In this document: positions 1 through 14,248 of the stretch, piece after piece
Layout of the letters: every line of letters starts with the position of its first letter
How positions within the stretch are numbered: the stretch's first letter is position 1
UHGV virus genome: UHGV-0063828
Strand: one strand, 5' to 3'
DNA from: a virus
Length of the DNA stretch: 37,358 nucleotides
Translations under genes and position numbers: made by a program
The notes under the pieces: model-generated
Database searches by the model: none
Told to the model about the DNA's origin: nothing
Seen by the model: the letters and a program-made list of their open reading frames with translations, nothing else

Positions 1-49
1 ATAAAAAAGCCCCATCACAAGGACAGGGCTATAGAATCAATCACTTACA

Positions 50-355
50 TCACTTAATATCTTTCATTCTACGGATACGCGCGCTTGCTTCCGGTAGTTC
101 ATCCAGTGTTACGTGATAAGCAAGCATACAGACAGGAGTCGGATCGAATCCCTCATGAGTATTGATCAGATGGCTATTCCCGCCTTTAAACTCATCCTGT
201 CCATCCCACATAGCGTACACGTCATCTTCTGCTACATAGATAATCAATCCAATAGGGGAGTTAGTAAGCTGGAAGATGCAGCCAGTAGAATCAATGCGAT
301 GTTCCCGAACGTCATCAACAGTTTCAAAGTCAATCTTAATATCTTTAGTCTTCAT
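50..355 (-). CDS. Hypothetical protein (101 aa)
   Basis: ATG start with GAGGG Shine-Dalgarno on minus strand; weak hairpin plus T-run downstream; no recognisable motifs. Confidence 0.5.
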   Translation of the reverse strand: MKTKDIKIDFETVDDVREHRIDSTGCIFQLTNSPIGLIIYVAEDDVYAMWDGQDEFKGGNSHLINTHEGFDPTPVCMLAYHVTLDELPEASARIRRMKDIK

Positions 356-653
356 GATTTGCCCTCGCGTGAAAATATTTTCGATTATTTATAAAAAAGA
401 CTTGACAAAATCAAAAGGTACTGTTCCACTGGTGAAATAAAGGGAGTTTTCGGCACCCCGGTTTTTGATGTGCGTGTGAGATTTCAAAACAGGTGCAGTG
501 CAGCCCACCAGCGCGGTCGCTACGCGACTATTAACACCAGCCAATCCCTTTCCCCGCCTCGATCTTTCCCTTCGTTATAAAGCGTTTTAGGCGCTCTCCT
601 GAATGCGCAGATCAGATAAATAATTTTACGCAAATTTAATGGAGGATAACCGG

Positions 654-1208
654 ATGAAAGAAGAATTAACCCTTACAGAAATTTCCCGCTTATACGGCTA
701 TACAATTAACGCCGCTAAGAAATGGTTAGAAAGGGGTCTACCGATGAACACCCACACGCGTCGTGTACCACTCAAGGAAGGGACCGAATGGATAGCAAAA
801 AATATCATCAGTCCACTCAGGGAAACTACTGTCAAAGAACAAATCGACGTAGAGAAGTTACGCCGCGAGAGAGCATTAGCGGACGCAGCCGAACGAGAGA
901 ACCAGGAAGCAATGAATCTCCTGATTCCCGTCGGTTATGTAGAACAGCAACTAGCGGAATATTGTGGGAAAGTTAAAACTACCATCTTACAAATTTGTAC
1001 GATTGACGTTTTAGAAATTCTCGAATCTGCGAGTGACCAGAAAACATTAAAGAATAAGCTAAGGGAGATTATCGAGCGTCGTTTAAATGAAGTAGGTGAC
1101 TTGTTCGAAAATGCAGATTTGGGAGAAGACGAGGAAGAAGAATTACCATTAATGGATGAACCGGAAGAACAAGAACCAGAAGAAGACGATGAATTTGATG
1201 TGTCTTAA
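654..1208 (+). CDS. Nu1-like winged-HTH protein, putative terminase small subunit
   Basis: GGAGGA SD 7 nt before ATG at 654 (track start 639 lies inside the SD). N-terminal LTLTEISRLYGYTINAAKKWLERGLPM resembles the lambda Nu1 HTH as recalled; coiled-coil middle; acidic C-terminal tail. Confidence 0.45.
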   Translation: MKEELTLTEISRLYGYTINAAKKWLERGLPMNTHTRRVPLKEGTEWIAKNIISPLRETTVKEQIDVEKLRRERALADAAERENQEAMNLLIPVGYVEQQLAEYCGKVKTTILQICTIDVLEILESASDQKTLKNKLREIIERRLNEVGDLFENADLGEDEEEELPLMDEPEEQEPEEDDEFDVS

Positions 1209-1303
1209 AACGCGTTATAAATAAATGTATGAAAGATGTTGAACGGGTCAACGTCTACGGGGGGAGAACATCCCCCGCTTAACTTTTAAGAGGATATAAA
1301 ACT

Positions 1304-1588
1304 ATGGCTACTTTTATTACCTATGCTGTCATCATTACTATTCTGGCTGTTATTTCTGCTTATAAACTCGGAACCGAAAATAGAGAACGTGCTGAATTAT
1401 TCTTAGGTGCGTTTGTTGCATTTGCTAGCCTTGCGTTAATTGTCGAAGGAATTTCTTATATTGTTGGCCTAGTTAGTATGACACTTTTTAACTTCCATCC
1501 AACTATTGCTATGCATTTGATGCTGACCGTACTTTGGGTATATTGCTTAATCGAATTTTTAACGTTTGTTTTCAAACAGACTAAATAA
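1304..1588 (+). CDS. Small integral membrane protein (94 aa, 3-4 predicted TM helices)
   Basis: AAGAGGA SD; strongly hydrophobic throughout; followed by tetraloop terminators. Confidence 0.5.
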   Translation: MATFITYAVIITILAVISAYKLGTENRERAELFLGAFVAFASLALIVEGISYIVGLVSMTLFNFHPTIAMHLMLTVLWVYCLIEFLTFVFKQTK

Positions 1589-1746
1589 TATTGTAATCTG
1601 CCTTTTCTCCTTATGTGGTTTTAACAGGGGGCTTTCGAAAGAGAGTTCCCGATTAAAAGCCATAAAACACATTCAGTACAGTGTTTTCATAGTCAGTGAT
1701 CTATACAACATAAAAACATAACAAGTATAGATTGAGTATTAATCCT

Positions 1747-1773
1747 CCCGCCCTTCGGGGCGGTTATTTTTCT
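1747..1773 (+). terminator. Intrinsic terminator with UUCG tetraloop
   Basis: CCGCCC-TTCG-GGGCGG followed by TTATTTTT. Confidence 0.7.
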
Positions 1774-1847
1774 GGCTTTACTAGATAATGTAGCATTATG
1801 TTCATTATAACCTCATCTTTGTTGTGCAACCTAACCTAAACTTACTA

Positions 1848-1873
1848 GGGACTCTTCGGAGTCCCTTTTTTTA
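1848..1873 (+). terminator. Intrinsic terminator with UUCG tetraloop
   Basis: GGGACTC-TTCG-GAGTCCC followed by TTTTTTT. Confidence 0.7.
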
Positions 1874-2812
1874 TTGGCAGTAAGAAAAGTTAGTACCGTA
1901 CATTTCATCATGAAGCATTGCAGCATTGCGTTTCTGTTCTTCTTCCTCATCTTCTACATCACTAGAAAAATGAGATTTGCCCTTAAAAGAACGAAGTAAT
2001 TGCAGTGCAGCCATCGGATCACGCATCACATCGATTTTCACTTCTACTTCATCATTTGCGGCCTCATCAGCCGCGTTTTCAACTACTGCTACCGGAGCAA
2101 CTTCTTTAGCTTTCAGTTCTTCAATCTCAGCTTTCTGTGCTTCGATAATCTGGTCTTTTTCTTCCAGTGCAGCTTTCAGTTCTGCGATCTGTGCTTCCAG
2201 TGCAGCAAAGCGATCTTCAACAACCGGAGAAACAGCATTCACCTGTGCTTCCAGTTCCAGAAATGCTTCGCAAGATTCAATACGTTCTTTCTCTTCACCT
2301 TCATAAGCAACCAGTTCTACAACTTCTTTTTCGGTAGCGTGGCTGTTAAAGAAAACAGCAAAGTAAGGATTGCCGGATTTAGTGAAGTTCAGTTTAGCTT
2401 TTCCGGTAACTTCTTTACGACGACCGAAGGTGATCTGGCAATCAGCGGTATCCTGAAAATCCATGTTAGGAGCGGAAACGATAGCAGTATCACCAGCAAT
2501 AACCAGGTGGAACAGTTCAGAAGAGTTCTTAACGGTAAAGGTAACGATGTGGTCTACTGCAACGTCTTTAGCTGGTTTAACGCGGTCGATTGCTTTACGA
2601 ATGCCGTTAGGCAGTTTACCGTCAACACCAAAGCCAGCCGCGATCAGTGCTTCACGATGTGCTTTAAAGCCAGCGAAAGCGGATTTCTGCTGTGCAAAGG
2701 AAACATGAGCAACAACTTTCGGCTGAATCTTCTTGTTTGCTTCTGTGCCAAATTTGATAACTGCTTTAGCGTTGGTTACTTCGTTAGTGAAAAAGTTAGC
2801 GGAAAATAACAT
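1871..2812 (-). CDS. Hypothetical protein with coiled-coil segment and acidic C-terminal region (313 aa)
   Basis: ATG start with GGAG upstream; heptad-like AALEAQIAELKAALEEKDQIIEAQKAEIEELKAKE; acidic stretch DVEDEEEEQ near C-terminus. Confidence 0.5.
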   Translation of the reverse strand: MLFSANFFTNEVTNAKAVIKFGTEANKKIQPKVVAHVSFAQQKSAFAGFKAHREALIAAGFGVDGKLPNGIRKAIDRVKPAKDVAVDHIVTFTVKNSSELFHLVIAGDTAIVSAPNMDFQDTADCQITFGRRKEVTGKAKLNFTKSGNPYFAVFFNSHATEKEVVELVAYEGEEKERIESCEAFLELEAQVNAVSPVVEDRFAALEAQIAELKAALEEKDQIIEAQKAEIEELKAKEVAPVAVVENAADEAANDEVEVKIDVMRDPMAALQLLRSFKGKSHFSSDVEDEEEEQKRNAAMLHDEMYGTNFSYCQ

Positions 2813-2855
2813 TATAAATACTCCGTGGAAAGTTAGTTTTAATTGTTCATTTCAA

Positions 2856-2893
2856 GCCTCCCTTGTTGCAGCAAAGGAGGCTTTTTCTTTTTT
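2856..2893 (+). terminator. Plus-strand intrinsic terminator located between two minus-strand genes
   Basis: GCCTCC...GGAGGC stem followed by TTTTTCTTTTTT. Confidence 0.55.
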
Positions 2894-2925
2894 AAAGCCA
2901 TCATATAATTCTCAGTGAAAGGTTA

Positions 2926-3108
2926 TTACCACACCTCTGCGGTAATCTTTACTTTAATGTCATACTTCTTTAAGAGTTTGTGGAAGGTTGATTGATCAAT
3001 ACCTTCACCTTTAAACCATTCACCCATCACTACATCAGGTGTCAGTTCAAAATAACGCTTTGCCATTTCTAAAACGATTTCGCGAGTGAACTTAACAGGT
3101 CGTGCCAT
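2926..3108 (-). CDS. Small HTH-type DNA-binding protein (60 aa), candidate regulator
   Basis: Strong AGGAGGA SD before ATG; borders the large repeat-rich non-coding region and is divergent from the rightward early genes. Confidence 0.5.
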   Translation of the reverse strand: MARPVKFTREIVLEMAKRYFELTPDVVMGEWFKGEGIDQSTFHKLLKKYDIKVKITAEVW

Positions 3109-3626
3109 CTCGAATCCTCCTAAATCTGGATTAATGATTTCTTAAAAAAGAGCGTTAACCGCTCACTATTATTTATATGGGGATTGTATTTTATTTTTCA
3201 ACCCCTCACATTTATCTCTTATATATGTATTTATAACAGAGATATGTTAAAATGTTATTCAGATGTTATCAGGCGTGTTAAATGTGTTAAACCACAGCAC
3301 GAATTGCTAAAGCGAAGAACACGATTTAACCAAATTGATGTTTATTCAATCAATTTAGAAAAAGGCATAGCACTTTTTGCTAAAGCGGTGAGCATTAATT
3401 GAGCTATGAATTGTAAAGATTTGTTACAAGATTTTCTCTCAGATCCAAATCTTCACAGACATATAACAATTTAACACGGTGATAACAATAGGAAGGAAAA
3501 TCGGTAAATTTTCACTTTCAATACAAATATTATACCACATTTTTCTCGAATTGTCAAGTATAGCACCAAACCTACATAGTGTCAAGAAAGGACTTTCAAA
3601 CCTACACTAGCCCTACACTATGAAAA

Positions 3627-3866
3627 TTGCCCCTGAATTTTTGCCCCTGAACCAAAATCCCCCTAGATTCCACATCCCATTTTTGCCCCTGAAACCCACT
3701 ATTTTTGCCCCTGAAATTCTGGGGAACAGTGATTTTGCCCCTCATTTTTGCCCCTGAAATGCCAATAATTGCCCCTGAAAATCTCATTTTTGCCCCTGAA
3801 ATTTGCCCCCGAAAAGGATTGGTGAGAAAAACTCTTTATAAAACATTAACTTAGTGAGGGGCAAAA
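3627..3866 (+). repeat. Iteron-like array: 7 perfect and 2 variant direct copies of TTGCCCCTGAA, plus one inverted copy
   Basis: Perfect copies start at 3627, 3641, 3683, 3705, 3748, 3769, 3790; variants at 3735 and 3803; inverted GAGGGGCAAAA at 3856-3866; same motif forms the hairpin at 6324-6345. Confidence 0.85.
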
Positions 3867-4016
3867 GCGAGGGATCGGGCGTGCATAGATATTATATAAC
3901 ACATTCGCTACGCTCATGTGTAAAACCAAAAACAACAAATAACCAAAAAGATATTAGGAGGGCGTAGCCCGACTGCGCGAAGCGCCAACCAATTACTTCT
4001 AGTAACAACTAATTTA

Positions 4017-4230
4017 AACTAGATGATCTTAGAAGGAATTAACTAGTTTGCTCGCTCGCTTCGCTCACTCTCAAACGTCTGCGACGCCACTGCGTGGCAT
4101 CGAGAATCACTTCTGAAAGGATTTTCTTGAAAGGGATTTTAAACTAGTTACTAACTGATTCTAGAAAGATAGTAATAATCACTTTGAAGATAATAGTAGT
4201 TAACTGGTTACTAGATGATTCTAGATCACT
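4017..4230. repeat. Cluster of ACTAG-centred palindromes and direct repeats
   Basis: AACTAGTT at 4041-4048 and 4142-4149; AACTAGATGATCTTAGAA at 4017-4037 vs TTACTAGATGATTCTAGATC at 4208-4229; TCTAGA sites. Confidence 0.7.
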
Positions 4231-4485
4231 TTAATGATCATGAAAGGTATTGGTTATCCCTTCGGGATTGCAACCTTCGGTTGCTAAATTGCTTCCTGAT
4301 TATAATTTCTCCAAAAGAAAGATTCTTATATTCTAAAGATACTTCTTCGTTTTGATGATGATTTAATCAAAATCTATGAAGGAGGCGAAGCCGACTGAAT
4401 CCAATCACTTCCAAATAGATAAAAAATTCTCGTTATAAATACTAGTGTAATTTGTTTGATTCACTTTCTTTTAGAGGATACCACT

Positions 4486-4938
4486 ATGATCAATACTAAA
4501 ACTCCTTTCATTCTTCTGGGTCTGAACCATGATGATAATCTGGCTATGATGCATGTTTTCGCTAATCGTGGTTATAACATCATTCGTCATTCCGAAGACT
4601 CCAATTTCTCAACTGCTTTCTATGCTCTTAAACGTAATGGTCGCCCTACGGTTATCGTAGACTGCTTTACTGATGAAGGTCGTGAACAATACAACAACAT
4701 TCCGGCAATTATTGTTCGTGATGACCTGCCGTTTGATGTTCGTGAATATGACGTTGATTTAGGCTCTTACTACGGGATCGCGGATCTTGACCAGATTATG
4801 GCTGATTATGGTAAACAACCCGCTCAGGAAGCCCCAGAACACGATGAACAAGACGAAGATGACGACGACTACGCACCAATCGCTTTTTCTTCTCACGGTG
4901 GCTTCTACGGTTACGATGAAGGCTTAGATATGCTGTAA
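4486..4938 (+). CDS. Acidic early protein (150 aa), function unknown
   Basis: AGAGGA SD before ATG at 4486 (track start 4456 is a TTG); first gene after the non-coding region; very acidic C-terminal half (EHDEQDEDDDDY). Confidence 0.5.
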   Translation: MINTKTPFILLGLNHDDNLAMMHVFANRGYNIIRHSEDSNFSTAFYALKRNGRPTVIVDCFTDEGREQYNNIPAIIVRDDLPFDVREYDVDLGSYYGIADLDQIMADYGKQPAQEAPEHDEQDEDDDDYAPIAFSSHGGFYGYDEGLDML

Positions 4939-4973
4939 GTTAGGTCAACCCTTTGGCGTTTTGTCAAGGGGTA

Positions 4974-5003
4974 TTGACAAAATTTTATGACTTTTTTATG
5001 ATT
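4974..5003 (+). promoter_or_regulatory. Sigma70-like promoter TTGACA-N18-TATGAT with adjacent palindrome TTGTCAA-N6-TTGACAA (4961-4980)
   Basis: Hexamers read directly; located upstream of the gene at 5059. Confidence 0.45.
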
Positions 5004-5058
5004 ATCGCACTTGACAACTTTGAACCTATTTGACCTAGATTTGTAAAGAGGGTGTAAC

Positions 5059-5391
5059 ATGAAAGAATTTACCATCACTAAATCCCTGTATGACTGGACT
5101 GTTAAAATCTCCGGCAAAACCGTTTCTGTAAGCCCTAGCCATGTAGAAAATGATTGGGGCGTATCCCGTGAAACAATCTCCCGTAGTATGCATGTTCCGT
5201 TTGATCTGATGTCCTTAACTGGTATTCATGCAATGCTGGAAGTTCGCGAGCAATTCGAAGCTGGTAATCACAATGCGACTCCAGTTAGCAATCACCTTCT
5301 TACTAATGAAGAACGTGAAATCATCGAAAACTGGCGTTATGAATATGCGATTCCTTATTATGAAGAAGACCAAGTAGAAATCGATTGGTAA
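5059..5391 (+). CDS. Hypothetical protein (110 aa)
   Basis: AGAGGG SD; preceded by promoter-like TTGACA-N18-TATGAT. Confidence 0.5.
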   Translation: MKEFTITKSLYDWTVKISGKTVSVSPSHVENDWGVSRETISRSMHVPFDLMSLTGIHAMLEVREQFEAGNHNATPVSNHLLTNEEREIIENWRYEYAIPYYEEDQVEIDW

Positions 5392-5487
5392 TAAATTTCT
5401 ATCATAAATAAAATTGTTCCGGTGGTGATGCCGGAACTAGGAGGACCAATATCATTATCGCAAAACCGTTTAAGGGGAATTTTTACT

Positions 5488-6318
5488 ATGAATACTGTTA
5501 CTACTATGAATACTGCTGTTAAAACTGCTTCCGTGTCTCTGGTTGTTGATAACACCAAACCGCTGACCATGTCTTCTCGTCAGATCGCTGAATTTACCGG
5601 AAAAGAACACAAAAACGTTAAACGTGATATTAAATCCATGCTCGATGCTCTGGAATTAGATGTGCTCAGTTTTGAGCGCACCTATCTTGATCAGTGTGGA
5701 CGTGAACAAACCGAATATCACCTTGACGAAGAACTTACGCTGACTCTTGTTACTGGTTACGATGTTAAGCGTCGAATGGTTGTTATTCAGGAATGGAAAC
5801 GACTGAAAGAAGAAAATGAAAAACTGCGTTCTCAGCAAGTCAACCCATACGCAAACATGACTAAGCTCGATTGGATTCGTGAGGCAATGGAATTGGAAGC
5901 CGCAAACGAACAACTGATTCAAGAAAAGAAACAACTGGTTGAATTGCATGTTCGTAAAGCTATCGACACACACAGTCTTAGCCGCTTATTAGGCGAAAAA
6001 CGAGGCTCTACGAAGGTACAAATTATTCTGAAAGGTTTATGTGCTGCTGGTGTTCTTGAGCGTCGTCTGGATGCTTCTGGTAAGCCTAAAGGCTATGATC
6101 TGCTTCCTCCTGGCTATATGTTCGCTCGTATGTCGGCACACGGTCAGATCGAGTTCACTGCTGATGCTATCCCGCATCTCGTAAAACTCGGATTGCTTGA
6201 AGAAGAAAAGGCCGCAACTTTGAAATTGCCACAGCCGAATAACTCACGAGCAATCGTCAATAATACTGCTTTGCTGATTCGTCAGAATGCTGGATCACTG
6301 GAACACTTCGGACTGTGA
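5488..6318 (+). CDS. Rha-family phage regulatory protein / antirepressor
   Basis: Motif MSSRQIAEFTGKEHKNVKRDIKSML matches the Rha N-terminal signature as recalled; AAGGGG SD before ATG at 5488; tetraloop-free hairpin terminator downstream. Confidence 0.6.
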   Translation: MNTVTTMNTAVKTASVSLVVDNTKPLTMSSRQIAEFTGKEHKNVKRDIKSMLDALELDVLSFERTYLDQCGREQTEYHLDEELTLTLVTGYDVKRRMVVIQEWKRLKEENEKLRSQQVNPYANMTKLDWIREAMELEAANEQLIQEKKQLVELHVRKAIDTHSLSRLLGEKRGSTKVQIILKGLCAAGVLERRLDASGKPKGYDLLPPGYMFARMSAHGQIEFTADAIPHLVKLGLLEEEKAATLKLPQPNNSRAIVNNTALLIRQNAGSLEHFGL

Positions 6319-7350: not shown

Positions 7351-9258
7351 ATGAAACTGATTTCTAATAAGGCAAAATTAAAAAAGATTCTTAAAAATGC
7401 AGCCAAATATATTACGCCACCGCCTAAGCTCCTTCCTTCTGAATGGTGCGAAGCGAATCTAACGCTAGTCGATGGTCCTCGTGCTGGGGATAAAGTTAAA
7501 TTACTGTCATTTCAGAAAGGCATGATTGATGCTCCTTTCCTTGAGAAGAAAAAGAAGTACGTTTTTTGTACGAGTGCGCAGATCGGAAAGACGACCATCA
7601 TGTCAGGGATCATGTTTAACCAGATGGCAAACGATCCGTGCAATATCATTATCGGGCAAAGTACCGCTAAAGAAGTGGCTATGTACTTGAATACTAAGAT
7701 CCGTCCTTCTATTGAAGCATGTCCGGCATTACAGGAAGTGGTAACAGATAAGAATGATCGTAATGCGGTAAACAACAATAACCAGATTCAGCTAAAAACA
7801 AACCATTTCCTTTACATGGTTTCTTTGACCAGTCCTTCAAGTTTGCGTGGGCGTACTGCCAAGTTAGGGATTGTAGACGAATGCGACGCAGCAACAATCA
7901 CCGAAGAAGGTTGTCCGGTGGCACTAACTGCAAACCGTTTAACTACCTTTGGTGATGAAGCTCGATTGATTGTTTCTAGTACCCCAACCAATAAGCTGGG
8001 AATCATTAACCAGCAATGGTTATCAAGTGATATGCGTATGTTTTTTGTTCCGTGTCCTCATTGCGGGGAACACCAGGTGATCGAGTGGGAAAACGTTCAA
8101 TTTGAATGGCGTAACATCGATGGTAAGAACTTACCCGATCCTGATACCGCTCGTTATATTTGCCCCCACTGTAAGAACGCATGGACCGAAGGGGAACGAA
8201 TCAGGGCAGTAGCACAAGGCGAGTGGAGAGCAACCCGTGAAAGTGAGGTAGCAGGATTCTGGATCAGCCGTCTGTATTCACCTTTCAGCACGATCCGCGC
8301 TTGTGTGGTTGATTTTAGTCATGCGTGGCAATCCTTTGATTTACAATCATTTTATAACACCGTGTTAGGCAAGGTATACGACGATCAGGACACGGCAGTA
8401 GAAGCAAATGAACTGGAACAACTCAAAACAGATGTTTCTATCGAGAATATCCCTGATGACGTAATTTTCTTGTGCTCAGGAATTGACCAGCAATTGGACC
8501 GCGCAGAATCTACCATCTTAGGTGTAGCGAAAGATAAGGTTTACATTCTGGATCACCGCAGCTTTTACGATCATAACTGTGAACGATACGAATCACCTGT
8601 TTGGGATCGTCTGGTTAACTTCAAGAAAACCAAATTCTATAACGTTAATGGTGAACGTGTGCCAATGCTCGCCAGCTTCCTTGATACATCGAACGGTCGA
8701 TTCACTCAAGCCGGATACCGTATTTGCGGCAAGTGGAAGAACCTACACGCTATCAAAGGTAGTTCATCTGGTAATGCTCCAGTGATTCCGGTTAAACCTA
8801 CCCGCACAGGTGGTCATGAATTGCTTATGTTGGGTGTTAACGTTGGGAAATCTGCTGTTCGTGAAATGTTGGTTAGAAACCTGAAAGACAATCCTCACAT
8901 TGGCTTAGAAATATCAGAAACCGTTCCTGATGATTATCTCGATCAGCTTTTGAGTGAATCCATCAAGCGTACTACTACTGGCGTGCGTTGGGTGAAAAAT
9001 CCAGGTAGTACCCGAAACGAGGCTCTCGACTGTCTGGTTTATAGCTATGCTGCTTCTCGCTACGTCCTTTCAAAAATGTCATGGGATAAACTCATTGCAA
9101 TGAAAGACAGCTTAAACCGTGTTGTCGAAGAATCCGTAAAAGCTCCTGAAACGCAATCTGACGAGCAAATCGAAGAAACTAAGCCAATCACACGACCGCA
9201 ACGTCAAAACATCGCCAGACGCCCAAATAGAGGCCGTAGCTGGGTAACATCGTTCTAA
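7351..9258 (+). CDS. Terminase large subunit, lambda gpA family
   Basis: P-loop region [10 protein letters not shown]; zinc-ribbon-like CPHCGEHQ...CPHC; GIDQQLDR and RNEALDC motifs as recalled from lambda gpA. Confidence 0.9.
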
Positions 9259-13842: not shown

Positions 13843-14248
13843 TAATATGCCGAGACTGAAAATCAAACGCGCCTTGCAAGATATTATCGAACAAGATTTA
13901 GGTCTGGCTTTAAACGTAGAACAAACTCAGCAAGGCTTTAGTGATGATGTGGTTTGTTGGATCACCGGAATGAATGAGACTTACACTAGGGTCCGTGGTG
14001 GTAATGCAATGCAAGCTGAATGCGTTATCGAAATGCAATTGTATTCTCAGATTCATGAAACCAAAATTCATGAGGGTATTTGCCAGATAATCCAGATTCA
14101 GCCGGATAACCCACGTTTTAAAGATTTGGGCTTCGCTATTTCAGATATCACTCCAGTAGCTTCTAATACCGATTATGACGATGATTCTAGTGATGGGGGT
14201 ATCGTTGGGACACTTAGCCTTAAATTTTCTTATCTAGCGCGTTTTTAA
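13826..14248 (+). CDS. Putative head-tail connector protein (141 aa)
   Basis: Start placed at ATG 13826 with GGGGG SD, overlapping the previous gene end; positional inference only. Confidence 0.4.
   Translation: MLATVNNMPRLKIKRALQDIIEQDLGLALNVEQTQQGFSDDVVCWITGMNETYTRVRGGNAMQAECVIEMQLYSQIHETKIHEGICQIIQIQPDNPRFKDLGFAISDITPVASNTDYDDDSSDGGIVGTLSLKFSYLARF

Follow-up and report, generated by a model that had tools for sequence, protein, structure and literature searches.

The window analysed here, a stretch of 37,358 nucleotides, is an uncharacterised chromosomal prophage of E. coli that carries a serine integrase and belongs to a family without isolated relative. Only E. coli chromosomes match its region 1200-3200, and megablast and blastn searches of phage and plasmid collections with this region returned no match; the best match of the large terminase in the phage collection is 43% identical, and no relatives were found when GTDB species genomes were searched with the 313-aa and small-terminase (terS) proteins of the locus. 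The comparisons presented below cover a set of 45 related prophage loci from E. coli, Salmonella and Edwardsiella, designated by L numbers. No tRNA or tmRNA was found in the region, while Rfam gave no match at gathering thresholds and only noise at E <= 10 (e.g., suhB/mmgR with 16.7 bits versus a threshold of 41 bits). A scan of positions 1-6000 with a terminator consensus detected 14 terminator-like sites, compared to 4.4 +/- 2.2 in shuffled sequences.

The rightward, plus-strand unit starts with a Nu1-like small terminase (terS-like) gene at 639-1208, whose product matches the terminase small subunit family phrog_57 over its full length (E = 2.8e-15); RefSeq relatives carry it as a plus-strand CDS with a start corresponding to window position 654, and its Edwardsiella homologue gives weak or faint Pfam matches to DUF1441 and Phage_Nu1. 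Between this gene and the following small ORF the consensus scan identified a plus-strand G+C hairpin with a T-rich tail (1258-1287), which looks like an attenuator or a partial terminator and which is kept in relatives, with changes in the loop and one exact flip of the hairpin in L007. The last gene of the unit, orf94 (1304-1588, plus strand), appears in the ORF list as a hydrophobic membrane ORF of 94 aa and as a CDS in RefSeq relatives, its place being taken in other relatives by plus-strand hydrophobic ORFs of 33 aa and 57 aa, each preceded by a Shine-Dalgarno-like GAGG and ending at a common TAAATAATA junction. Irrespective of the ORF located upstream, a structured 3' untranslated region (3'UTR; 1589-1747, plus strand), recognised by folding and conservation, is kept in front of the first terminator, with 68-75% identity to the divergent relative L037. 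The intergenic region as a whole folds with -79.2 kcal/mol on the plus strand (z = -4.1) and with -71.2 kcal/mol on the minus strand (z = -2.7). It contains hairpin H0 (1627-1650, plus strand), which has a 10-bp stem, a GAAA loop and no T run and is far more stable on the plus than on the minus strand (-14.2 versus -4.1 kcal/mol). Pairs of its stem covary (UA<->CG, AU<->GU and UG<->UA<->CG), and Salmonella and Edwardsiella have an entirely different stem at the same position. Judging from these comparisons, the conserved RNA feature of the locus is the structured 3'UTR upstream of the first terminator and not the spacer that follows it.

Two intrinsic terminators on the plus strand, both identified by consensus scan and folding, lie beyond this 3'UTR. 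T1 is composed of a hairpin at 1748-1763 (CCGCCC-TTCG-GGGCGG), with a stem of 6 bp that are all G-C (-13.0 kcal/mol), and of the tail TTATTTTTCT, the element extending to 1773. T2 (hairpin 1847-1866, element to 1876) possesses an 8-bp stem (AGGGACTC-TTCG-GAGTCCCT; -14.1 kcal/mol) and the tail TTTTTTATTG, and its T run shares bases with the stop codon (1871-1873) of the converging gene for the 313-aa protein. An earlier note on this DNA had placed both terminators inside a block of minus-strand genes; however, the two genes directly upstream, the terS-like gene and orf94, are on the plus strand, and T1 and T2 can thus be regarded as tandem terminators of the rightward unit. Because the U tract of T1 is interrupted (UUAUUUUUC), this terminator is probably leaky, in which case T2 would serve as its backup. 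Together with T3, a third terminator described below, T1 and T2 appear to be unidirectional in the window, since the minus-strand sequences that follow the T1, T2 and T3 stems (AGGATTAATA, AGTAAGTTTA and TGAAATGAAC, respectively) are not T-rich and none of the three is preceded by an A tract on its 5' side. In addition, the consensus scan found no minus-strand terminator in 1589-1875. In three Salmonella loci a marginal T-rich tail follows the reverse of T2, so that not every copy would be strictly unidirectional. The leftward operon is not equipped with an intrinsic terminator at this junction; at 6318/6398, where the prophage has its other convergent junction, each strand is served by one.

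The leftward early operon, on the minus strand, is preceded by two near-consensus sigma-70 promoters at 3529-3585, with 12/12 and 11/12 matches, both with TG, which occupy ranks 1 and 2 in the window according to a PWM. Its first gene (2926-3108) encodes a protein of 60 aa with homologues in E. coli, Salmonella and Edwardsiella. The second position is held by a variable cassette, in this case the gene for the 313-aa protein (1871-2812, from the ORF list), which is located between T2 and T3 and is introduced by a leader that alignments show to be conserved (2813-2854; Shine-Dalgarno GGAG, TTTATAA and the mini-ORF ATG AAC AAT TAA) and that is also present in L037, L038 and L039-L045. The 313-aa protein has only 12 relatives among 1.84 billion representative proteins, and the best 120 of its 396 matches are 99-100% identical; it received no Pfam or PHROG assignment, and its single-sequence AlphaFold model (pLDDT 46) was too poor for a fold search. 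In relatives this gene is swapped for other genes, so that at least nine different cassettes are found between common flanks.

T3, which lies in the cassette leader, between the 60-aa gene and the cassette gene, and hence between two minus-strand genes as had been noted earlier, is a plus-strand intrinsic terminator with a hairpin at 2855-2882 (AGCCTCC-C-TTG-TTGCAG-CAA-A-GGAGGCT) and the tail TTTTCTTTTTT, the element reaching 2893. It comprises 7+3(4) bp with -16.5 kcal/mol and z = -3.6 (0/200 shuffles as good; z-scores of T1, T2 and T3 span -2.1 to -4.1), it is unique in the window, and it was not picked up by the criteria of the consensus scan. The window carries a flipped copy, for which the minus strand gives the better fold (-17.5 versus -15.0 kcal/mol). 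T3 is accompanied by its T run in E. coli, Salmonella (L040, L041, L044 and L045) and Edwardsiella (L039), and its absence from one Salmonella sub-lineage (L042/L043) indicates that it is not essential. The outer stem AGCCTCC/GGAGGCT and the flanks AAAGCCATCAT display a sequence conservation far beyond the need of a plain terminator, which hints at an extra function. An ORF of 21 codons that spans T3 was discarded, as its reading frame is not conserved. No plus-strand gene or strong promoter was found in 1871-2855, i.e., T3 does not close a co-oriented unit of the kind seen at T1 and T2. Moreover, read along the plus strand, the regulatory region (3109-3600) comes only after T3, so that T3 could stop only polymerase arriving from 1871-2855, antisense to the 313-aa gene; the earlier suggestion that T3 may end antisense transcription is left standing, but the regulatory region as the source of such transcription is not. 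T3 most likely blocks antisense transcription and less likely ends a sar-like antisense RNA.

The manner in which these hairpins vary among relatives indicates the strand on which they are maintained. Stem variants of H0, T1, T2 and T3 were counted in 38, 38, 38 and 36 loci, respectively, and the plus strand was the more stable one in 26 of 28 distinct variants; two T1 variants tie between strands, and the window-type T3 is the only one that favours the minus strand. T1 is represented by nine variants, including a series from C-G through U.G to U-A, while T2 varies by C-G <-> G-C exchanges and by G.U pairs and in L037 has a different stem with two wobbles that pair on the plus strand only. Of seven T3 variants, six fold more stably as plus-strand RNA, with plus-only wobbles at three different stem positions. 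In an alignment of H0, T1 and T2, to which T3 does not belong, 99.1% of cells are paired and the covariation score reaches 0.145, versus 0.109 in shuffles (0/500 attain 0.145), and pairing drops to 46-70% when the registers are slid. Unrelated sequences replace the T1, T2 and H0 stems in Salmonella and Edwardsiella, with hairpin and T run retained at T1 and T2 (L039, L043 and L044, for example, have unrelated stems plus a T run at the position of T1), and T runs are kept in all relatives examined. These compensatory and G.U changes, which pair on the plus strand only, show selection on the plus-strand RNA. This selection, along with the location of the hairpins, upholds the earlier identification of strong plus-strand terminators at 1747-1773, 1848-1873 and 2856-2893: T1, T2 and T3 are, as far as their conservation reveals, real stop signals for rightward transcription, at which polymerase would be expected to terminate.

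The spacer between the tandem terminators (1774-1846, plus strand) supports neither a gene nor a small RNA (sRNA). It had previously been described as an ORF-free segment of about 75 nt, of which the shortness (73 nt) and the lack of a conserved ORF stand, while tiny ORFs are present whose frame or stop is lost in relatives. Thus, a plus-strand ORF of 13 codons loses its frame, and a minus-strand ORF of 13 codons (1805-1765) undergoes only non-synonymous changes and has a stop that moves with the length of the T run. A candidate minus-strand promoter with a perfect TATAAT (1810-1805), the one good -10 on that strand, was dismissed in view of its poor -35 and its 6.0 bits, and because it is not conserved in L037 or Salmonella; the consensus scan found no minus-strand terminator downstream of it. 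A Rho-utilisation site for leftward transcripts was likewise discarded, as base counts show that the minus-strand spacer is not C-rich over G, and so was a type I toxin-antitoxin system, for which small hydrophobic ORFs are present but no antisense sRNA gene with promoter and terminator was found. A short CT/GT-rich core of the spacer, CTCATCTTTGTTGTGCAAC, recurs in relatives.

Several other explanations of these elements were considered. If spacer and T2 formed an independent sRNA gene, with a rightward promoter in or just after T1 and its end at T2, one would understand why E. coli relatives hardly differ in the spacer (mean pairwise difference 0.070), why it combines the lack of a conserved ORF with a strong terminator next to it, and why its core recurs in the spacers of Salmonella (in a form that is roughly UCUCCUUUGUGUUGU) and Edwardsiella. 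However, the adjacent 3'UTR is just as uniform (0.070 versus 0.075), and in a comparison with L037 no segment is less conserved than the spacer (32% identity and 25 gap columns, against 68-75% identity for the 3'UTR). Spacer length ranges from 73 nt to ~250 nt (L039). The best plus-strand promoter candidate in the spacer (TTTTCT-17-TAGCAT) attains 6.75 bits and rank 320/6534 in the window, a consensus promoter scan of the spacer gave no match, and none of the candidates is found at a constant position across eight representative relatives. Furthermore, the 100-nt RNA made up of spacer and T2 folds no better than shuffles (z = -1.7) and finds no Rfam match beyond noise even at E <= 10, and the predicted spacer hairpin contains no varying pairs and no covariation. 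With no conserved promoter on either strand, no Rfam match, no covariation and 32% identity to L037, such an sRNA, the short spacer transcript that had been proposed, is unsupported and very improbable. The functional RNA might instead be the 3'UTR, which spans ~185 nt from the stop codon up to and including T1 (H0, two A/U hairpins and T1) and which would either stabilise the mRNA for the small membrane proteins or give rise to an sRNA. We consider this possible though doubtful, and compatible with the converging units described below: the 3'UTR is kept with differing upstream ORFs and folds with z = -4.1 on the plus strand, H0 combines strong plus-strand covariation with complete stem replacement in other genera, and the stretch 1650-1746, in which the weaker hairpins H1 and H2 are found, has 68% identity to L037, where each of the two hairpins shows one compensatory double change. 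Conversely, H1 is deleted in three loci (L030 type), H2 is broken in L011, L024 and L030, the H0 loops vary (GAAA, UUU, UUCG), the 3'UTR sequence gives no basis for calling a promoter or a processing site, and no Rfam family matches it. At the level of DNA, the hairpin blocks beside T2 and T3 could mainly be boundaries that provide homology for cassette swapping, their terminator shape being incidental. In this regard, T2 is a mosaic boundary, as similarity to relatives with other cassettes stops right after its T run (~1875) and again at the start codon beside TATAAATAC, and at least nine cassettes occupy the slot between these shared flanks. This view leaves unaccounted for both the compensatory and plus-only wobble changes and the whole-stem replacements that retain hairpin and T run, and it seems improbable as the main role of these blocks; boundary and terminator functions are not mutually exclusive.

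The excess conservation of T3 invites comparison with known antisense regulators. P22 immI sar RNA and lambda OOP RNA are small cis-antisense RNAs that have their own terminator inside an operon of opposite sense, and in P22 sar controls ant, located downstream of arc. The role of sar as an antisense regulator of ant has been described (PMC2629481, PMC5415839). By analogy, T3 might terminate a cis-antisense RNA of ~65-85 nt that would base-pair with the cassette mRNA in its leader and at its ribosome-binding site. The layout is similar, with a very strong promoter, a 60-aa first gene, an intercistronic palindrome that would terminate antisense transcription only and a gene of ~300 aa, and the T3 hairpin starts 43 nt past the first start-codon base (2812) of the 313-aa gene on the opposite strand, a position like that in sar and OOP and one from which an RNA of this size would follow. 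Besides the unusual conservation of T3 and its flanks, at least eight cassette types combine T3 with TATAAATAC beside the start codon, a motif absent from the T3-less L042/L043, and each cassette type but L007 (5/6) has a weak -10/-35 candidate (4.6-8.5 bits) whose -10 ends 36-55 nt before the T3 hairpin. The proposed promoter would be weak and overlap the cassette start codon, with the -10-like TATAAA at 2813-2818 or, alternatively, TAACAT/CATTAT. On the other hand, all the candidates are weak when set against a 95th percentile of 6.7 bits in the window, and the -35 would fall in variable coding sequence. The conservation of TATAAATAC is equally well explained by a shared translation-initiation leader or a recombination joint, and L007 has T3 without this motif. 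In contrast to sar and OOP, no convincing antisense promoter was found for T3; neither the sequence of the locus nor its proteins resemble arc or ant, and the 313-aa protein shows no similarity to antirepressors. We therefore judge a sar-like RNA at T3 to be unlikely, albeit within reach, and see only a slim prospect that T3 forms the 3' end of a ~70-nt RNA gating translation of a diversifying, exchangeable early cassette in an undescribed Enterobacterales serine-integrase prophage family. The palindrome could also act in the minus-strand mRNA, as a 3'-exonuclease barrier for the 60-aa cistron, by sequestering the GGAGG Shine-Dalgarno of the mini-ORF ATG AAC AAT TAA, or as a nut-like boxA/boxB site, given that its minus-strand hairpin is stable as well (-19.5 kcal/mol with flanks), that GGAGG is followed 4-9 nt later by ATG-N3/N6-TAA in most T3 variants, that the flanks are conserved on the side absent from a terminated plus-strand RNA, and that the upstream GGCUUUAAAAA bears a weak resemblance to the boxA consensus. 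Nonetheless, on the minus strand 6/7 variants (34/36 loci) have C-A mismatches in place of the wobbles at three stem positions, the plus-strand T run is conserved, and the mini-ORF varies in codons and in length (2 or 3 codons), which makes a minus-strand role hard to credit. The loop sequence of the palindrome varies and is even flipped between close relatives, which is incompatible with a loop-specific protein site of the boxB type; a nut-type site was rejected on finding loops as different as UUGCAG, CUGCAA, UUGCCG, CGCCAA, UUACCG and CUGCCA.

The explanation that we favour for the whole, and hold to be probable, is that the left arm of the prophage consists of two converging transcription units, one rightward and one leftward. 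The rightward unit would run from the terS-like gene through the attenuator-like hairpin, one or two small membrane ORFs and the structured 3'UTR to T1 and T2, where T2 would catch the read-through of a leaky T1. The leftward unit would start at the two promoters (3529-3585) and proceed through the 60-aa gene into a cassette specific to each relative, here the 313-aa gene, before meeting T2 from the wrong side, as a hairpin without a U tract. T3, in turn, may stop polymerase that moves antisense through the cassette, be it read-through from T1 and T2 or the product of spurious starts in the AT-rich cassette, before it collides with, or silences, the 60-aa gene and its promoters. T1, T2 and T3 would thus behave as one-way valves that let leftward early transcription pass and block rightward transcription. 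This convergent arrangement with one-way terminators is, on balance, the likely reading of the gene orientations, hairpins, T runs, plus-only pairing and conservation across three genera observed at the locus.

Parts of this arrangement have counterparts in well-studied systems. The E. coli rrnB T1-T2 pair consists of tandem Rho-independent terminators at the end of an operon, and the prophage pair resembles it in that two G+C hairpins of the same orientation, each with a U tract, follow the last gene at a distance of tens to hundreds of nt from one another, and the second would catch read-through. It differs in being located at a convergent junction, where it abuts the stop codon of the opposing gene, and in that its architecture, rather than its sequence, is conserved across three genera. 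Terminators between convergent gene pairs, including bidirectional ones, have been described by full-length RNA profiling. The prophage shares with them the convergent intergenic position and a hairpin that is physically common to both transcripts; unlike bidirectional terminators, T1, T2 and T3 have no upstream A tract, and the leftward operon lacks an intrinsic terminator of its own. A classical moron brings its own promoter and a co-oriented terminator. The term moron has been defined for phage accessory genes (PMC2629481). As in morons and at mosaic boundaries, a variable gene set occupies a fixed slot whose conserved flanks contain transcription signals, whereas, in contrast to a classical moron, the prophage cassette would depend on the operon promoter for its transcription and is flanked by two terminators that are both oriented opposite to it.

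In conclusion, the picture of the locus is corrected to that of a convergent junction with one-way terminators, instead of orphan terminators or a hidden sRNA gene, and this prophage family gains predicted transcript-end annotations (T1, T2 and T3) together with a conserved structured 3'UTR. As it stands, the biology of the locus is standard. Were T3 to form the end of an antisense RNA, or to act as an insulator of the early promoter, it would represent a reusable control element at a hotspot of accessory-gene exchange, and, if the sar-like RNA exists, the block formed by leader and T3 would be a portable antisense control module inherited by any incoming cassette.

The 37.4-kb window is a chromosomal Escherichia coli prophage: its first 8 kb find matches of 80-97% identity in 64 of 5,426 complete E. 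coli genomes, it begins ~35 bp past a truncated ycdX gene, relatives are inserted in hicB or a cytosine-permease gene, and a 564-aa serine integrase is encoded at its right end. No DNA-level similarity to the prophage was found in phage and plasmid collections, and the closest isolated-phage counterpart of its large terminase is at most 43% identical. Forty-five related loci (L001-L045) were gathered for comparison, 12 of them from E. coli genomes via BLAST, 24 from IMG/VR through an exact spacer pattern, L037 and L038 through distant homologues of a 313-aa protein, and seven Salmonella and Edwardsiella loci (L039-L045) through homologues of a 60-aa protein; the IMG/VR loci were left out when judging spacer conservation because that selection biased them.

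The left arm opens with a variable cargo gene (50-355, minus strand), in a slot where the window and L004, L008 and L039 hold a 101-aa ORF, an LprI-family protein, a GIY-YIG nuclease and a reverse transcriptase-TIR protein (the last in the Edwardsiella locus), and which probably serves as a hotspot for accessory or defence genes. Two rightward genes follow, a Nu1-like small terminase (639/654-1208; phrog_57, E = 2.8e-15) and a 94-aa hydrophobic ORF (1304-1588), with a plus-strand G+C hairpin whose tail is rich in T (1258-1277) between them, and then a 282-nt intergenic region (1589-1870). Beyond it lie the leftward 313-aa (1871-2812) and 60-aa (2926-3108) genes, and two near-perfect leftward sigma-70 promoters with TG extensions (3529-3585, minus strand; PWM ranks 1 and 2 in the window) adjoined by ~10 iterons, TTTTGCCCCTGAA or TTTTGCCCCTGAA(A), at 3628-3814; for iterons and promoters together an operator array or a replication origin is conceivable. 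About 40 nt 5' of the 60-aa gene start, in a long leader, a terminator-like minus-strand hairpin (3143-3164; GAGCGGTTAACGCTC followed by TTTTTTAAGA) may attenuate the early operon, and similar sequence occurs in L037 and L038. Between the small terminase gene and the gpA-like large terminase (7351-9258) lie ~6 kb that hold the leftward early operon, the iterons and a Rha-family gene, a layout unusual for lambda-type packaging genes. Further right, within plus-strand structural genes, ARAGORN calls a 91-nt tRNA-Gln(UUG) (14013-14103, minus strand; anticodon at position 40) of odd length, perhaps a false positive, perhaps an unusual tRNA.

Three plus-strand hairpins are at issue: T1 (1748-1763, tail TTATTTTTCT) and T2 (1847-1866, tail TTTTTTATTG), both among the top matches of a terminator scan that returned 14 sites in 1-6000 versus 4.4 +/- 2.2 in shuffles, and T3 (2855-2882, tail TTTTCTTTTTT; -16.5 kcal/mol, z = -3.6), which the scan did not pick up and which is single-copy in the window. 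On the minus strand, none is followed by a T run. T1 occurs with nine stem variants, one position running C-G, U.G and U-A, and L039, L043 and L044 carry unrelated stems in its place, always with the T run 3' of the stem. Variants of T2 include a C-G to G-C exchange and G.U pairs, and the divergent relative L037 replaces its stem altogether by another of 10 bp that includes two wobbles. T3 comes in seven forms: wobbles occur at three separate positions of its stem, and an A-U/U-A exchange is seen in Salmonella. These wobbles would read as C-A mismatches on the minus strand, and in nearly every variant of the three hairpins the plus-strand RNA is the more stable. In an unbiased 13-sequence alignment that covers T1, T2 and a further hairpin, H0 (T3 lies outside it), 99.1% of cells are paired versus only 46-70% in slid registers, and the covariation score is above that of every one of 500 shuffles. 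Thus the strong plus-strand terminators claimed in the earlier note are borne out by scan, folding and stem variants as real, conserved hairpins, and the comparison argues that all three are genuine intrinsic terminators under selection, with RNA ends predicted there from sequence. As a separate observation, the T3 hairpin of the window is the perfect reverse complement, with identical flanks, of the copy in several close relatives (L001, L005, L006, L011), and the hairpin at 1258-1277 is likewise exactly flipped in L007; such flips transfer a G.U wobble to the opposite strand and look like quasi-palindrome template-switch mutation.

The same note had placed all three among minus-strand genes, which holds for T3 only: T1 and T2 directly follow two plus-strand genes, for which RefSeq relatives give the same orientation. 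T1 and T2 are accordingly read as terminating the rightward unit. In relatives, hydrophobic plus-strand ORFs of 33 and 57 aa replace the 94-aa ORF and stop at the same TAAATAATA junction, and therefore a plus-strand coding unit always precedes the intergenic block; the tandem layout is preserved in 8/8 divergent loci. The T run of T2 and the stop codon of the 313-aa gene overlap, and it is at this T run that relatives with other cassettes (the genes between T2 and T3) cease to resemble the window. The terminator scan found no terminator of the leftward operon's own in 1589-1875; the other convergent junction of the prophage (6318/6398) has one per strand.

The conserved element of this region is the 3'UTR, from stop codon to T1, instead of the 73-nt spacer (1774-1846) between T1 and T2. 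H0 (1627-1650) has ten pairs, including UA<->CG and AU<->GU changes, is favoured by 10 kcal/mol on the plus over the minus strand, and in Salmonella and Edwardsiella is rebuilt from different sequence at an unchanged position; what matters is its stem, since the loop is not conserved. Each of two weaker A/U hairpins shows one compensatory change, but some loci have them broken or deleted. As a whole, the intergenic region folds with z = -4.1 (plus strand) versus -2.7 (minus strand). The 3'UTR may act as an mRNA stabiliser or as the source of a 3'UTR-derived sRNA.

On the other hand, a small RNA from the spacer itself, as had been proposed, found no support in promoter, Rfam, folding or conservation checks. 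The spacer, described as ~75 nt and ORF-free, is close to that length, and tiny ORFs occur on both its strands, none maintained in relatives. A promoter scan of it gave no match, its best plus-strand candidate by PWM reaches 6.75 bits (rank 320/6534), and across eight representative relatives no candidate is positionally kept on either strand. Rfam gave no match, spacer plus T2 folds with z = -1.7, and the predicted spacer hairpin shows no variation among relatives. Within E. coli, spacer diversity (0.070 versus 0.075 for the adjacent 3'UTR) indicates no extra conservation; the spacer is the segment least conserved relative to L037 (32% identical with large indels, versus 68-75% before T1), and in Edwardsiella the T1-T2 distance is ~250 nt. 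A short CT/GT-rich core at 1830-1846 (CTCATCTTTGTTGTGCAAC in the window, TCTCCTTTGTGTTGT in Salmonella; complement AAGGAG) nonetheless recurs in otherwise divergent spacers across three genera (L037, L039-L045).

Read in gene sense, T3 precedes the start codon of the cassette gene by ~45 nt. The T2-T3 slot (1871-2812 in the window; L003, L006-L010, L037, L039-L045) is an exchange hotspot with at least nine different gene sets among relatives; a globular N-domain, a coiled coil and an acidic tail are common to the first proteins of these sets, the second proteins have a C-terminal PTLR(L/I/V)VA, and one protein (L010) has a YA repeat at its end. The 313-aa protein has just 12 relatives among 1.84 billion representatives. 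Conservation of T3, in its sequence, T run and flanks, reaches to an AT-rich relative with a cassette protein of 34% identity, and one Salmonella sub-lineage lacks T3. In L037 a 230-nt insert parts T3 from the 60-aa gene, and T3 remains with the cassette leader; this insert (locus 3700-3900), absent from the window, holds three TTGTGGATAA motifs resembling DnaA boxes.

Plus-strand polymerase reaches T3 only from 1871-2855. Transcripts from the regulatory region (3109-3600) are thus out of its reach, which rules out the suggestion that it ends antisense transcription issuing from there. An antisense RNA resembling sar or OOP, begun nearby and ended at T3, is judged rather unlikely; upstream of T3 no good plus-strand promoter was found, the candidates being weak (4.6-8.5 bits, -10 ending 36-55 nt before the hairpin). 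A role on the minus strand, as an SD-sequestering hairpin with a mini-ORF, a stabiliser or a nut-like site, is disfavoured, being opposed by the strand-specific wobbles and by a variable, even flipped, loop. On minus-strand RNA the 3' arm of T3 does supply GGAGG followed by a mini-ORF of 2-3 codons (2841-2852, minus strand), found as ATG AAC AAT TAA, ATG ACA CAT TAA, ATG AAA CAC TAA and ATG ACT TAA, with ATG and TAA constant and the codons between them varying. In the preferred reading, T3 would work as a one-way block, shielding the 60-aa gene and the early promoters from antisense polymerases. The prophage family carrying the T1-T3 junction is uncharacterised, and the locus itself is best read, from its sequence, as an ordinary, if tidy, convergent junction with terminators in tandem and in antisense orientation.
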